This document shows, piece by piece, positions 7,181 through 64,000 of a stretch of 64,000 bases of DNA (positions within the stretch are counted from its first letter, which is position 1; every line of letters starts with the position of its first letter). The DNA lies in NCBI GenBank assembly GCA_016932575.1, contig JAFGCO010000011.1, positions 108,321 to 172,320 on the forward strand, in the 5' to 3' direction. The notes beneath the pieces were generated by a model. That model was given only the letters and a program-made list of their open reading frames with translations, had not been told where the DNA came from and made no database searches. The position numbers and the translations under genes were made by a program. Source of the DNA: a bacterium. Its GTDB lineage: Bacteria; Zhuqueibacterota; QNDG01; JAFGCO01.

Positions 7181-7220
7181 AAAAAAAGCCCCTTAAGACA
7201 ATCCTTAAGGGGCTTTTTTA
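7181..7220 (-). terminator. intrinsic terminator (bidirectional hairpin) downstream of 7236..8669
   Basis: AGCCCCTTAAG-loop-CTTAAGGGGCT stem flanked by A-run and T-run. Confidence 0.65.
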
Positions 7221-11810: not shown

Positions 11811-11832
11811 AGAAGCATACTCTGCATATCAT

Positions 11833-11866
11833 AAAAAAGGCTGTCCATAAGGACAGCCTTTTTTAT
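11833..11866. terminator. bidirectional intrinsic terminator between convergent genes
   Basis: A5-AGGCTGTCC-ATAA-GGACAGCCT-T6. Confidence 0.7.
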
Positions 11867-18998: not shown

Positions 18999-19037
18999 CA
19001 AAAAAGCCTGTGGTCATAAAACCACAGGCTTTTTTTA
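18999..19037 (-). terminator. intrinsic terminator (bidirectional) downstream of 19062..20669
   Basis: AGCCTGTGGT-CATAAA-ACCACAGGCT followed by T7. Confidence 0.7.
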
Positions 19038-58007: not shown

Positions 58008-58213
58008 GTATTTCTGTCTCCATATCAGGAATATTATTTTGCAAGGGTTGTAAAAGATACGGAAAATGCGGTTTATTGTCAATGACCAATAAAATCAGAT
58101 TCCTAACAAAATGAAATAATTATTTCATTTCGTTAACATTTGTAAAATGATTGTGAATCAGTGGGCGGTTATAAGAATTTATTATTATGGGAGTTATGAT
58201 ATTTTTTAAAAAA

Positions 58214-58230
58214 TTGGCACAATATCTGCA
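58214..58230 (+). promoter_or_regulatory. candidate sigma54-type promoter (TTGGCAC-N5-CTGCA)
   Basis: GG and GC dinucleotides spaced as in the -24/-12 consensus; intergenic; a sigma54 activator is encoded in the window. Confidence 0.25.
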
Positions 58231-58285
58231 TTTTCATCAGTCAGGAAAGCATAACCTCCTTTCCTCAATTTAACCCCTTGTGATC

Positions 58286-58324
58286 GGGTCCGTGTCCCCC
58301 CGCACGGACCCATTTTTTTTAAAA
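58286..58324 (+). terminator. intrinsic terminator-like hairpin (plus-strand orientation)
   Basis: GGGTCCGTG-loop-CACGGACCC followed by ATTTTTTTT. Confidence 0.55.
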
Positions 58325-58396
58325 TCAGAGACCGTTATCCGATCTTAAATTCATTCCATTTTTGAGACTGTTGAAAAATCATTCTAAACATTATTC

Positions 58397-58461
58397 TTAG
58401 CCTCCCGGAGGTTGAATATTTCCAATAGGCAATTTTGCTTATATAACCTCCAGGAGGCTAA
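58397..58461. repeat. REP-like inverted doublet TTAGCCTCCCGGAGGTT / AACCTCCAGGAGGCTAA
   Basis: Two 17-bp near-palindromic units in opposite orientation separated by 31 bp; same motif class as 2711-2745. Confidence 0.5.
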
Positions 58462-58768
58462 ATTTACAACTTTTTCGACAGTCTCGTTATGTTTTATAAG
58501 AAATAATCACCTTCATCGAATTCATCATCATAATGCCACAACTCCAATTTTATCCTGAATAATTCAAAATTTTCTTGCTCTCGTTCTTCGGCTAATTTCT
58601 CAATAATTTTTAAATCTGTTTCTCTTCTCATATTAATGCTTTCTTTACAATATAAGTCTTGGCTAACTGGATTAAAATAAAACGATAGCCTTAAGAAAGA
58701 ACAATTCCACCAAACTTAAATCAATGAGAAATCGTATGCATATATTTTCTGTTGAATTTGTTAATATA

Positions 58769-59077
58769 TCAAATCGCTTCTGAATATACTTTAACTTCGT
58801 CTTCAAGTTTATCACCCAATTTATCTAACTCCACTTCTAAATCGTAATGTGATTGCAGATTAGTCCAAAATTGCGGTGAAATATTGAAGAAGCGACCTAG
58901 TCTTAAAGCCGTATCCGCACTGAAAGATCGTTTACAGTGTACTATCTCATTTATACGTCGAGGGGGAACATTTATATCTTTTGATAATCTGTATTGTGAG
59001 ATCCCCATCGCATCCAGAAATTCTTCCTTTAATATTTCCCCGGGGTGTATGGGTGGTATCTTATTTTCTTTAATCAT
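58769..59077 (-). CDS. higA: HigA-family antitoxin (XRE-type HTH)
   Basis: 102 aa; IHPGEILKEEFLDAMGISQYRLSKDINVPPRRINEIV...SADTALRLGRFFNISPQFWTNLQSHYDL. Confidence 0.8.
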   Translation of the reverse strand: MIKENKIPPIHPGEILKEEFLDAMGISQYRLSKDINVPPRRINEIVHCKRSFSADTALRLGRFFNISPQFWTNLQSHYDLEVELDKLGDKLEDEVKVYSEAI

Positions 59078-59256
59078 TTATAATCTCCTAATGGTAACGA
59101 TTTCAACATTATATGCATTTCCACCCTTCCCCTGTCATTCCGGTAGTGTTTTGAGCCGGAATCCACCTTTACCCTGTTGGATATTTTTATTTATCCAACA
59201 GGGTGAACCTTGAACCTGAAGAATATGCCCTGTGAAATAATGAATCAAACCATTTC
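59078..59256 (-). pseudogene. decayed higB toxin remnant
   Basis: Frame ending directly at higA start encodes ...GKGGNAYNVEIVTIRRL (compare HigB C-terminus GNAYDVEIVDYH) but is closed by an in-frame TGA (59135-59137) 18 codons upstream; upstream sequence is frame-broken. Confidence 0.35.
59171..59204. repeat. perfect 13-bp-stem palindrome ACCCTGTTGGATA-N8-TATCCAACAGGGT
   Basis: Direct reading; lies inside the higB remnant. Confidence 0.6.
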
Positions 59257-59426
59257 CTATTTTGGACAAGAGTGATTTCGTGTAATATTTTTAATTTTAG
59301 TCATCTCATTTTTAGAGGGTGTTTTTGTTTTAATATTTCCTTTATCATACTCCTCTAAAACATATTTCTCTTCTTTATTCAGTTTCATGGCTTTTTTCAA
59401 TTTCTTTAAGAAAATCTCTTGCATTC

Positions 59427-61714: not shown

Positions 61715-62026
61715 AACTGACACTCCTTTAAACATTAATTGTGCGTTGTTTTGGACTTATGATTTAATAAAATAAGGGACACATTTTTCAAATTCAAATG
61801 TTTTTTTTATGAGAAACAGTTAGTTATTGAGACATTCTTCAACATCACGGAATGGTGACCTTAACAGTAACCTGTTTTTTGGGTTTGCCATCACATCATA
61901 GCGACCTTTATCATTAAATGTGATCGTACTCATAAAAACGCCTCTGTAAACTTTAATCTAAAATATACATAATATCTGTTTCAGCGGTCGCGATCCAAAA
62001 GCGACTGTCCCGAATGTTGTGTTTTT

Positions 62027-62050
62027 GAATTCCGCATCCGTGCGGAATTC
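62027..62050. repeat. 10-bp-stem palindrome GAATTCCGCA-TCCG-TGCGGAATTC
   Basis: Direct reading, intergenic. Confidence 0.5.
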
Positions 62051-62081
62051 GCGGAGCGCTTTAGCGATCCACTGCGAACAT

Positions 62082-62094
62082 GGGTTCTACGATT
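62082..62094. repeat. left 13-bp inverted repeat (GGGTTCTACGATT) flanking TA cassette
   Basis: Exact reverse complement of 62766-62778. Confidence 0.6.
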
Positions 62095-62399
62095 TAATAT
62101 TTGTCTTGATAAATTTCAGCTTTTCGAATTTGACGATGACCTTCAAACACAGTCAAAATATTAATTCTTCCCTCACCGAGGCCATATACTATTCGATATC
62201 CTTTAATCAATAATTCCCGGATATTGCTATCCATGAATTCAGGCACAATGCGGCCCATTTTTGGATTATCTACAATCATCAGCGTTTGATCAACCAAATA
62301 ATCCGTGAACTCAACAGCTTTTACTTCATTATCTTCAGCGATGAAGGCTTCTATTTCGATAAGCCTGTGTAAAGCTTCCTTCGACCAGACAATCTTCAT
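62094..62399 (-). CDS. type II toxin, RelE/ParE family
   Basis: 101 aa; ParE/RelE-like C-terminus (YRIVYGLGEGRINILTVFEGHRQ); overlaps antitoxin stop by 4 nt. Confidence 0.85.
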   Translation of the reverse strand: MKIVWSKEALHRLIEIEAFIAEDNEVKAVEFTDYLVDQTLMIVDNPKMGRIVPEFMDSNIRELLIKGYRIVYGLGEGRINILTVFEGHRQIRKAEIYQDKY

Positions 62400-62689
62400 T
62401 GAGAATTCCTTGCAGTTCTGGCCATTTTGATTTTCTCTTTCACCTGATCAGTTGTATAGTATTCACCTGATTCAATGTCCTGCTGCCCCTGGTTAACCGA
62501 GTTAACAAAGGAATTTTGATATGTCAACTTATCGTATTCATTGGGTGTTAAAACAACGCCGGCCGGTCTGCCATTTTGAGTAATAACAAGATGGCGCCCT
62601 GTTTCATTCAACGATTTAAGAAATTTTGATATACCCGTCTTAAATTCACCCATGGGGATAATATCTTCTGAAATTGTAAGCTTTTTCAT
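62396..62689 (-). CDS. type II antitoxin, Phd/YefM family
   Basis: VITQNGRPAGVVLTPNEYDKL core; start at ATG 62689 (M12) with AGGAG upstream; palindromic operator-like site ATACCTAAATATAGGTAT upstream. Confidence 0.75.
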   Translation of the reverse strand: MKKLTISEDIIPMGEFKTGISKFLKSLNETGRHLVITQNGRPAGVVLTPNEYDKLTYQNSFVNSVNQGQQDIESGEYYTTDQVKEKIKMARTARNSQ

Positions 62690-62765
62690 GTTTTTTACTC
62701 CTATATTTAAGCCTATATTCATACCTAAATATAGGTATTTATTTTGATCAATTCAAGATATTCTT

Positions 62766-62778
62766 AATCGTAGAACCC
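62766..62778. repeat. right 13-bp inverted repeat (AATCGTAGAACCC) flanking TA cassette
   Basis: Exact reverse complement of 62082-62094. Confidence 0.6.
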
Positions 62779-63080
62779 CTAAACATAACTTGCGCAAAAG
62801 CAACCGATCACATATCGAAGCTGATATTTGGACACCACATTCAAAAATGAAATTCAAGTACCGCTTTTGCATCCAGTTTATGTTTTTGTTGAGACTGTCA
62901 AAAAACCTGTATATTTCCCAATTTATTCCACTTGTCAAACAATTCAATCACTCATTAAGCAAATCTTTTCATCACAACCCGGAAATCCTTCATTATATCT
63001 CCGGGGCTACCCATTTTCCTGATATCCTTATGCAAAACCTGCCCCATAATTCACGATCTTCTCAATGTTGTGAATATGAT

Positions 63081-63131
63081 CGTTCCAGGGTTGTACCCTG
63101 GAACGCACTATGTTGGAGGGCTGTGCCCTCC
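63081..63131. repeat. pair of REP-like hairpins immediately 3' of RAYT gene
   Basis: CGTTCCAGGG-TTGTA-CCCTGGAACG and GGAGGGC-TGT-GCCCTCC; second overlaps the RAYT stop codon. Confidence 0.55.
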
Positions 63132-63676
63132 TACTTCAAACAATCCTTGTTGAGGGATATAATGCTTTCATCATCCAGTATCCAGTTTCTGGCACTGCTG
63201 TATTTCCAATGCTCCGGTTTTTCCACAAATCCCTTTCGGACTGGATTATAATGGAGATAATCCATTTTTTCATTGAACCATTTTTCGGATAATAAAGCGA
63301 CAGGATGATAATCATCCTTCCATATCTTGTACTTTTGTTTGGGAAGATTACAGGCAGCTTTTTCAAATACTTCCAGATATTGGATCCGTTTATCATATAC
63401 AAGTAAATCTTTAATTCTTTTTGAAGTGAATTGTCGAAAATCTCTCATGATATCTGATAAATTTGTTTCATCAGAATTTGAAGTAATTAAATGTAAATGT
63501 GTTGGCATGATGATAAATCCCAGAAGATATAACCCCTTGTTTTCCTGACAATATTTCAAACTGTCAATGATGACCTGAAAGTATTTGTCCTCCTGAAATA
63601 TCGGAATCCAGGCAATGATTGTGCAGGTTGAATAATAGAAACCTGTTTCAGCGGTGTATATTCTGTATCGTTTCAT
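63131..63676 (-). CDS. REP-associated tyrosine transposase (RAYT, IS200/IS605-like Y1 HUH enzyme)
   Basis: 181 aa; HUH motif MPTHLHLI, C-terminal YNPVRKGFVEKPEHWKYSS block. Confidence 0.8.
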   Translation of the reverse strand: MKRYRIYTAETGFYYSTCTIIAWIPIFQEDKYFQVIIDSLKYCQENKGLYLLGFIIMPTHLHLITSNSDETNLSDIMRDFRQFTSKRIKDLLVYDKRIQYLEVFEKAACNLPKQKYKIWKDDYHPVALLSEKWFNEKMDYLHYNPVRKGFVEKPEHWKYSSARNWILDDESIISLNKDCLK

Positions 63677-63698
63677 TTAGTCGATTCTGGTCATTCAT

Positions 63699-63715
63699 GG
63701 AAGGCACAGCCTTCC
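63699..63715. repeat. REP-like hairpin GGAAGGC-ACA-GCCTTCC
   Basis: Same family as 63115-63131 in opposite orientation, one base-pair difference. Confidence 0.5.
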
Positions 63716-63718
63716 TTT

Positions 63719-64000
63719 TTATCCGCCCAGAGGTAGGAACCTCTGAGCGATCAGATACTCGTCCTGCCATATCTTGATTTTTGTACCCTGACGCTTGCCG
63801 GCTTTCCGAAATATGTGAAGTAACAATCTTTCATTGTTCTGTTCAAGAAGTTTTACTGTTTCAGTGGATGTATAGCGTTTGAAATCGCGAATGATTCCGG
63901 TTAAATCGTAACCTTCTTTGCATGAAATCATATAATGGATATGGTTCAGCATAACAACGAGTCCAAATAGAAGAAGTCCCTTTTCTTTTCTGCAATAATT
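63719..64000 (-). CDS. second RAYT paralog, C-terminally truncated, 5' end beyond window
   Basis: HUH region MLNHIHYMIS and ...KIKIWQDEY aligns with the intact RAYT but stops about 55 codons early; reading frame continues to the window edge. Confidence 0.65.
   Translation of the reverse strand, partial: NYCRKEKGLLLFGLVVMLNHIHYMISCKEGYDLTGIIRDFKRYTSTETVKLLEQNNERLLLHIFRKAGKRQGTKIKIWQDEYLIAQRFLPLGG

Follow-up and report, generated by a model that had tools for sequence, protein, structure and literature searches.

The RAYT locus described here is best fitted, with good probability, by TnpA_Y1 subclass 2.6 (Quentin et al. 2018), which is the same as RAYT group 5 (Bertels et al. 2017; PMC5581495). 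[quoted passage not shown] Subclass 2.6 (group 5) comprises the least characterised REP-associated transposases, and their cognate repeats have been described only in the words just quoted. To our knowledge, no biochemistry exists for this group. The locus analysed here and its relatives provide an end model supported by covariation (a foot, an 11-bp hairpin, a spacer and a 7-bp hairpin, mirrored at the other end), a breakpoint defined at the nucleotide level, and full, decayed and gene-less derivatives. Such material is a basis for cleavage and strand-transfer assays and for asking whether some RAYT units still move whole; its practical meaning for the source genome is modest. The reading that we favour, with a probability of about 0.72, is that the 64-kb window (the whole stretch of DNA that was analysed) contains a REPtron-type RAYT cassette of 677 bp, which has the size of IS200, is bordered by inverted 58-nt modules and abuts a RAYT gene of another lineage truncated at the cassette end.

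The intact gene of the locus (63131-63676, minus strand) is a RAYT or TnpA_REP-like ORF encoding 181 aa. The histidines of its HUH motif PTHLHLI are H60 and H62, the putative catalytic tyrosine Y140 lies 78 aa beyond H62 in the motif YLHYNPVRKGF and thus in a Y-x3-N-P context, and the C-terminal block is WKYSSARNW. When the protein was aligned with 40 homologues (41 sequences in all), H60, H62, Y140 and the WKYSS tail were found to be invariant or almost so. The score against the NCBIfam model NF047646 (REP_Tyr_transpos) was 106.6 bits, which is above the cutoff of 80, the score against Pfam Y1_Tnp (23.0) exactly equalled the cutoff, and the NCBIfam IS200 model (transpos_IS200) gave no match to the intact protein. 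E. coli TnpA_REP (4ER8) was the sole solved structure matched by sequence; the E value of 2e-3 is marginal, and the HUH motif and the tyrosine line up with HMH and DYIYINP of 4ER8, respectively. The features named in the first-pass annotation of the window (the intact ORF, the HUH motif, YNPVR, WKYSS, the KIKIWQDEY end of the neighbouring gene and two hairpins) are all present where it had placed them, and the comparisons with Pfam, NCBIfam and 4ER8 confirmed that both genes are of the RAYT-type HUH/Y1 class. The feature is real, well defined and an ordinary member of the described RAYT/REP family, and the locus comprises one probably functional and one dead transposase gene at the contig end. 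Relatives in the genome collection were at most 67% identical and were concentrated in Bacteroidota and the FCB group. Among 72,556 plasmids, 5 carried a relative, all with identity of 39% or less, and plasmid carriage was rejected on account of these matches being so few and distant. The RAYT locus adjoins a toxin-antitoxin pair.

The complete cassette (63077-63753, minus strand), which runs from TGATCG to CGATCA, was delimited by blastn homology to an ENA metagenome contig (L002) and by its inverted 58-nt ends. The layout of the 58-nt module comprises a TGAT foot, an 11-bp hairpin opening with C-G, a spacer of about 9 nt and a 7-bp hairpin GGRGGC-N3-GCCYCC. In the 5' (left-end) module (63697-63755, minus strand), the foot occupies 63750-63753 and the outer 11-bp hairpin 63724-63749, and beyond the spacer follows the inner 7-bp hairpin (63699-63715). 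The 3' (right-end) module (63075-63133, plus strand) is an inverted copy of the left one, with the foot TGAT at 63077-63080 (read on the plus strand), the outer 11-bp hairpin at 63081-63105 and the inner hairpin at 63115-63131. A covariance model of the module (R1) recognized the left module with 60.6 bits (E 1.4e-13 / 6.5e-15) and the right one with 66.7 bits (E 3e-15 / 1.4e-16), and their folds reached -31.9 and -32.4 kcal/mol, respectively. The two double-hairpin blocks thus bracket the intact gene as inverted copies in which inner hairpin pairs with inner and outer with outer. The loops of the inner hairpins (TGT and ACA) are reverse complements of each other, and the differences between the outer stems, seen on aligning the left flank with the reverse-complemented right flank, are compensating substitutions. 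On the side of the gene, the inner right-end hairpin overlaps the RAYT stop codon, and 22 nt separate the inner left-end hairpin from the ATG downstream of it. The pattern GGARGGCNNNGCCYTCC (GGARGGC-N3-GCCYTCC) occurs in exactly 2 copies in the 64 kb, which are the two inner hairpins, and the number expected by chance from dinucleotide-preserving shuffles was 0.00. No known RNA family (Rfam) and no tRNA was found. The other long hairpins of the window are A/T-flanked, terminator-like stems that are unrelated to the module. A Logan contig (L001) matches 62006-63057 with 100% identity and ends 17-20 nt short of the cassette; as this end point is unlike a repeat-induced break, it was set aside as evidence.

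The L002 contig matches positions 63074-63753 of the window over 680 nt with 95.6% identity. Both modules are present there together with a RAYT protein 96% identical to the intact one, and the upstream neighbour of the RAYT gene is a SnoaL-like gene, with no other RAYT and no truncated gene. The homology stops 0-3 nt from the module feet on both sides and the flanks are unrelated. Since the homology halts at both ends and the neighbour is different, the 677-bp unit is a cassette with defined limits, present in two unrelated settings. In L005, a contig of 13.5 kb, there are solo ends and two complete cassettes, which share 96% identity over 682 nt and are separated by unrelated DNA. The double-hairpin layout was observed at 12 loci around RAYTs with identities of 45-96%, and modules with different stem sequences flank RAYTs of 45-75% identity in KSB1, Ignavibacteriota, Cytophagia and unclassified MAGs. 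The two contexts found for this cassette type and the duplicates found in relatives suggest that the cassette may move as a unit.

The hairpins are under selection for structure. In a plain MAFFT alignment of 25 modules, which was not fitted to structure, compensatory two-sided changes were found in 13 of the 18 base pairs, 83% of the cells were paired in comparison with at most 54% when the partners were slid, and the observed covariation was reached by none of 500 shuffles. In the alignment of 62 model hits, which was fitted to the model, 17 of the 18 pairs covary. The foot (T)GAT followed by C-G is present in 22 of the 25 modules.

Within the 64-kb window, the hairpin is a single-locus feature: searches with R1 (filters off) and with mismatch-tolerant patterns revealed no modules beyond the two flanking copies. 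In relatives, by contrast, gene-less copies are dispersed. Three elements of about 80 nt were found in L006, solo modules and a 136-nt mini-element in L003, and tandem arrays in L009 and L010. A scan of JGI metagenomes with the right-end outer stem CGTTCCAGGG-N5-CCCTGGAACG as the query provided at least 146 matches at at least 120 loci, which were picked by the hairpin stem itself and represent mostly other organisms and mostly the higher-GC YCTC subtype. Among the matches listed, a RAYT-like protein was encoded in only 8 of the 120 hairpin-bearing loci, and of the first 100 loci, 78 yielded complete two-hairpin modules with R1, 130 in all. The convergent module pairs in these 100 loci (43 among the matches listed) were mostly short, 40 of them spanning 98-162 nt and 1 spanning 364 nt, and the other 2 were full cassettes of 676 and 714 nt. 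The ratio of gene-less mini-elements to full cassettes among the listed metagenome matches was about 20 : 1. Two subtypes could be distinguished. The low-GC subtype has a GATC foot like that in the window and is represented by mini-elements in L155 (two), L115 and L141 and by decayed cassettes in L180, L181 and L191; the higher-GC subtype with the YCTC foot was more numerous among the matches listed. The dispersed gene-less copies in relatives support the view that the hairpins are part of a repeat system tied to this RAYT clade.

True CGTC-type repeats (CGTCATTCCCGC...GCGGGAATCCAG) occur as separate neighbours in some of the metagenome loci. The described CGTC-tagged REPs have a CGTC tag, an 8-9-bp stem opening with A-T pairs and a CCA tail (Di Nocera 2013, PMC3733652). 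A link of the modules to these 'orphan', transposase-less REPs was rejected, since the modules lack a CCA tail and their CG forms the first base pair of a G+C-rich stem of 11 bp.

The ORF of the second RAYT gene (minus strand), including its tail, covers 63719 to 64000 and runs off the window end there. The coding sequence derived from the paralog (63754-64000, minus strand) has kept the HUH motif (NHIH) and lacks the catalytic tyrosine, and its 5' end lies beyond both the window and the contig. After ...KIKIWQDEY, the gene continues with 11 unrelated codons and a stop. This read-through tail, LIAQRFLPLGG and TAA (63719-63753, minus strand), is encoded by the left module of the cassette and is not RAYT sequence. 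The aligned tyrosine of the truncated gene corresponds to residue 123 of the 181 residues of the intact RAYT, so that about 58 residues including the catalytic tyrosine are missing. Because it is incomplete, the paralog remained below the NF047646 cutoff (31.7 bits, cutoff 80); its score with the IS200 model was 20.6 bits (cutoff 55). The truncated gene is 100% identical to the NCBI entry P0121 ('transposase, partial') from a 172,371-bp contig, and since P0121 extends just 17 residues past the window, the contig ends inside this gene.

In P0122 and P0123, which are full-length relatives of the paralog, WQD(G/D)(Y/F) is followed by HPVAI(L/V)SEKWF...NPVRKG...WKYSSARNW. The paralog itself displays the motifs NHIH and WQ, and its relatives display YMH[AE]NP. 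An apparent match of 'DHIHNIEKIV' to a WQxxYxDHI motif was dropped, the real continuation in the full-length relatives being HPVAILSEKWF. The contig which encodes P0122 (L204) contains the paralog lineage with its own cassette and its own double-hairpin modules (outer stem CGCCCGGGAT...), and the RAYT gene in it is a pseudogene that has in-frame stops and reads NPIH instead of NHIH. L204 matches the truncated paralog with 85% nucleotide identity and this homology ends exactly at 63754. As the homology to L002 starts at 63753, the breakpoint between the paralog and the cassette end (63753-63754) is base-exact, with no filler and no overlap. Neither a 3' remnant of the paralog (three minus-strand frames downstream and tblastn with three C-terminal queries) nor its right-end module was found beyond the cassette; the paralog's own 3' module is gone. 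The two RAYT genes are only 37% identical, and the truncated gene is therefore not a recent tandem duplicate. The best stretch common to both is 23 nt with 87% identity and there is no long exact k-mer. Judged by these sequences, the truncated gene is anciently diverged and belongs to a cassette lineage different from that of the intact RAYT.

The paralog stops one base before the left end of the cassette, which argues that the truncation was made at the cassette end. We infer the order of events that removed the 3' end of the paralog, which may have been either of two: the whole cassette may have inserted into the older gene, the distal part being lost afterwards, or the transposase may have mediated an adjacent deletion at the cassette end. 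A simple insertion with both halves kept was rejected because no 3' remainder of the paralog is present. A mechanism can be modelled on IS608 TnpA and E. coli TnpA_REP (PMC6006769, PMC3479197). By this analogy, the enzyme would most likely recognise the hairpins as folded single-stranded DNA and Y140 would most likely cleave at the foot beside the outer hairpin; the subsequent rejoining would mobilise the DNA enclosed by a left and a right module, be it the full cassette or the gene-less left-right derivatives. The conserved 4-nt foot occupies the place of the GT[AG]G guide in canonical REPs. A more far-reaching proposal is tentative, and we would put the odds somewhat against it: the clade may not be domesticated and may represent an autonomous IS200-sized element, whose bipartite ends with the GATC or YCTC foot let one enzyme move both the cassette and the gene-less doublets. 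It would then be a living intermediate between IS200 and REP/RAYT which prefers landing in or beside other RAYT cassettes.

The different contexts and the truncation might also result from ordinary rearrangement and deletion around a domesticated, immobile REPtron, in which the RAYT is a vertically inherited single-copy host gene and only the gene-less doublets move. According to the literature (PMC5581495, PMC6006769), a RAYT gene is as a rule present in one copy and passed on vertically, and the REPtron does not move as a whole; the excess of mini-elements over full cassettes among the listed metagenome matches, the 5 plasmids with only distant relatives and the lack of extra module copies in the 64-kb window are in agreement with this. 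We nevertheless consider it unlikely, since the homology to L002 ends 0-3 nt from the module feet on both sides, the two L005 cassettes are nearly identical over their full length with unrelated DNA between them, and the breakpoint of the paralog coincides with the cassette end to the base. A function of the hairpins exclusively at the RNA level, as terminators, mRNA stabilisers or translational occluders as in IS200, with no role in DNA mobility, would suit the position of the inner hairpins at the stop codon and just upstream of the ATG. IS200 uses its left-end hairpins for such RNA-level control. The single terminator-like site detected in the window (63699-63715, plus strand) might be added in favour of such a role; 1.4 intrinsic terminators were expected, however, and the site is oriented opposite to the genes, so that the reading of the hairpins as intrinsic terminators was rejected. 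Because mirror-image modules stand on either side of the gene and also occur without genes, as convergent pairs over many contigs, and because the lone terminator call is on the opposite strand and not above chance, a purely RNA-level role is unlikely, and very much so; the lack of an Rfam match also speaks against it.

The first-pass annotation had described two tandem paralogs, each followed by REP-like hairpins of its own, and had suggested that a REP insertion truncated the upstream gene. Hairpins do lie directly 3' of both coding sequences, and REP insertions into RAYT genes are known from subclass 2.4 (PMC6006769); a similar case was found in L008, where a hairpin interrupts the RAYT at ...NPVRKGFVE. 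The hairpins beside the truncated gene, however, belong to the 5' module of the intact cassette: the sequence is contiguous with the cassette and 95.6% identical to L002, where this module precedes the RAYT and no truncated gene exists. R1 found no second module between the two genes and there is no independent REP at 63677-63760. A local duplication disagrees with the low identity of the two genes and with their different cassette lineages, of which that of the paralog has different hairpin sequences (L204). A solo REP insertion disagrees with the breakpoint at 63754/63753, which is the boundary of the complete 677-bp cassette, and with the missing downstream remnant, the C-terminal codons of the paralog not resuming after the hairpin. 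What stands of the earlier description is that both genes are of the RAYT type, that one of them is truncated and that the hairpins are tied to the RAYT; the statement that REP-like hairpins follow each gene is not supported, and the scenario built on it appears highly improbable. Finally, the junction might be a chimeric join in a MAG contig whose end falls within the paralog. Such assemblies are often broken or wrongly joined at repeats, and the public contig does stop 17 codons past the window inside a gene of a repeat family. The two genes have no long exact k-mer in common, though, and the junction lies at a biologically meaningful boundary outside the shared sequence, which leaves an assembly artefact with hardly any probability.

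The cassette resembles subclass 2.6 in protein length (181 vs. 179 aa), HuH-Y spacing (78 vs. 82 aa), the HUH...W...Y-x3-NP layout, the WKYSS serine motif, the occurrence of relatives mostly in Bacteroidota and the FCB group, and the hairpins on either side of the gene, which have no GT[AG]G tag and are found at other places in genomes. The probable assignment is based on these traits (length, spacing, motifs, tail and flanking hairpins). The intact copy with THLH, WK and YLHYNP deviates slightly from the subclass consensus NH[LIV]H, WQ and YIH[QN]NP. The bipartite double-hairpin module with its GATC or YCTC foot and the near-identical duplicate cassettes in L005 go beyond the description of the subclass. 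The GT[AG]G guide of the canonical subclasses 2.2, 2.4, 2.5 and 2.7 is absent, the foot being (T)GAT or, in the high-GC subtype, YCTC.

The E. coli REPtron (TnpA_REP/YafM with REP/BIME; 4ER8) shares with the cassette a monomer-type HUH/Y1 gene with aligning catalytic motifs, inverted flanking hairpins and dispersed inverted doublets. It differs in that the sequence similarity is limited to E = 2e-3, the GTAG guide is missing in the cassette, each cassette end is built of two unlike hairpins instead of REP pairs, and the copy number within the 64 kb is not high. As to the genes, two adjacent RAYTs that are 37% identical are present in the window and two nearly identical cassettes in L005. In common with IS200/IS608, the cassette is a unit of about 0.7 kb with a single Y1 gene, subterminal hairpins, near-identical copies in at least one relative and no obvious target duplication. 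Its protein, however, has Y-x3-N-P where IS200/IS608 have Y-x3-Q and does not match the IS200 model, and its ends are inverted copies, whereas IS200/IS608 have unlike left and right ends that do not form inverted repeats.

TIRtrons (Di Nocera et al. 2013, PMC3733652) likewise contain RAYT-like genes (TIRYT) with long TIRs, some of them 'double palindromic', and moderately abundant dispersed dimers and clusters. Unlike several TIRs, which contain GGGGWSAS, the modules do not have this motif, and neither 58-nt module of the window contains GGGG. Most TIRYTs were later placed in subclass 2.1, whose proteins are longer (about 238 aa) (PMC6006769). The gene-less pairs of the relatives (98-162 nt) are similar to REPINs (Bertels and Rainey 2011, PMC3116915) in being inverted intergenic doublets that far outnumber the transposase gene; unlike in REPINs, each arm is itself a two-hairpin module, and the window contains no doublet. 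The cassette works like a REPtron, or a TIRtron in the sense of Di Nocera et al. (2013; PMC3733652). Its resolved bipartite ends, the near-identical duplicates and different contexts of some cassettes, and the base-exact truncation of another RAYT at a cassette end are what this locus and its relatives add to the literature with which they were compared.

In the RAYT-bearing relative L008 (JAFGDT010000037.1), the RAYT gene is cut short within the sequence ...NPVRKGFVE at about 520-560 by an inserted outer-type hairpin, the 11-bp type of the terminal modules, which ends in CGATCAG. This interruption is a second case of self-targeting inside the RAYT family. The nearest full-length relative of the truncated paralog (locus L204, 120-290) is a pseudogene too, with TAA and TAG codons in frame at positions 2 and 7 and with the HUH motif changed to NPIH, although its terminal modules are still intact.

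Decayed cassettes of the low-GC type, to which the window cassette belongs, were found at three loci (L181, 1407-1591; L180, 298-443; L191, 677-816). In L180 and L191, the right-end module is followed only by the last ~28 codons of the RAYT gene, and in L181 by a fragment corresponding to RAYT residues 25-53, which shares 96% nucleotide identity with window positions 63519-63600. These decayed cassettes look like intermediates between a full cassette and a mini-element, the gene-less pair of left and right modules.

Directly downstream of the RAYT cassette, the window carries a pair of genes for a ParE toxin (101 aa) and a Phd/YefM antitoxin (108 aa) on the minus strand (62094-62722), and the 350-bp spacer between this pair and the cassette contains no ORFs in the window. 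L001, a Logan contig, matches window positions 62006-63057 with 100% identity and ends 17-20 nt before the cassette end. A perfect 10-bp hairpin, GAATTCCGCA-TCCG-TGCGGAATTC, is located just 3' of the ParE gene (62027-62050), ~20 nt away from an end of L001; it is without a T-run and has no relation to the RAYT modules. A 1.3-kb stretch of low GC content (0.32-0.36) lies between the genes for valyl-tRNA synthetase and an MFS transporter (58083-59426). It includes a 102-aa ORF on the minus strand (58769-59077) which, judged by eye from its sequence, resembles an HTH antitoxin of the HigA type; an ORF for a partner toxin was not evident. Three long perfect hairpins of 14-16 bp (7182-7219, 11831-11866 and 19000-19035), each between runs of A at one flank and runs of T at the other, resemble intrinsic terminators that act in both directions; they have no relation to the RAYT cassette.

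Gene-less elements also form head-to-tail arrays directly adjoining a RAYT cassette in two RAYT-bearing relatives (L009, 580-1740; L010, 9790-10670), with short AT-rich spacers, for example AGTAAAATATAAMAC, between them. In the high-GC subtype, solo outer hairpins lie inside extended inverted sequence, TTCTTCT...AGAAGAA (L089, 3708-3752, and L111, 1612-1656, among others), and left feet are generally rich in pyrimidines and right flanks in purines. Longer termini or a target preference may lie behind the extended inverted flanks and this bias. The flanks of module matches at several high-GC metagenome loci (L092, L106, L111, L121, L163, L166 and L188) contain REPs with the classical CGTC tag, such as CGTCATTCCCGC...GCGGGAATCCAG or CGTCATTCTGGC...GCCAGAATCCAG, at most about 60 nt from the mini-elements. 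The same intergenic spots appear to hold clusters of both repeat families, the classical CGTC-tagged REPs and the mini-elements.
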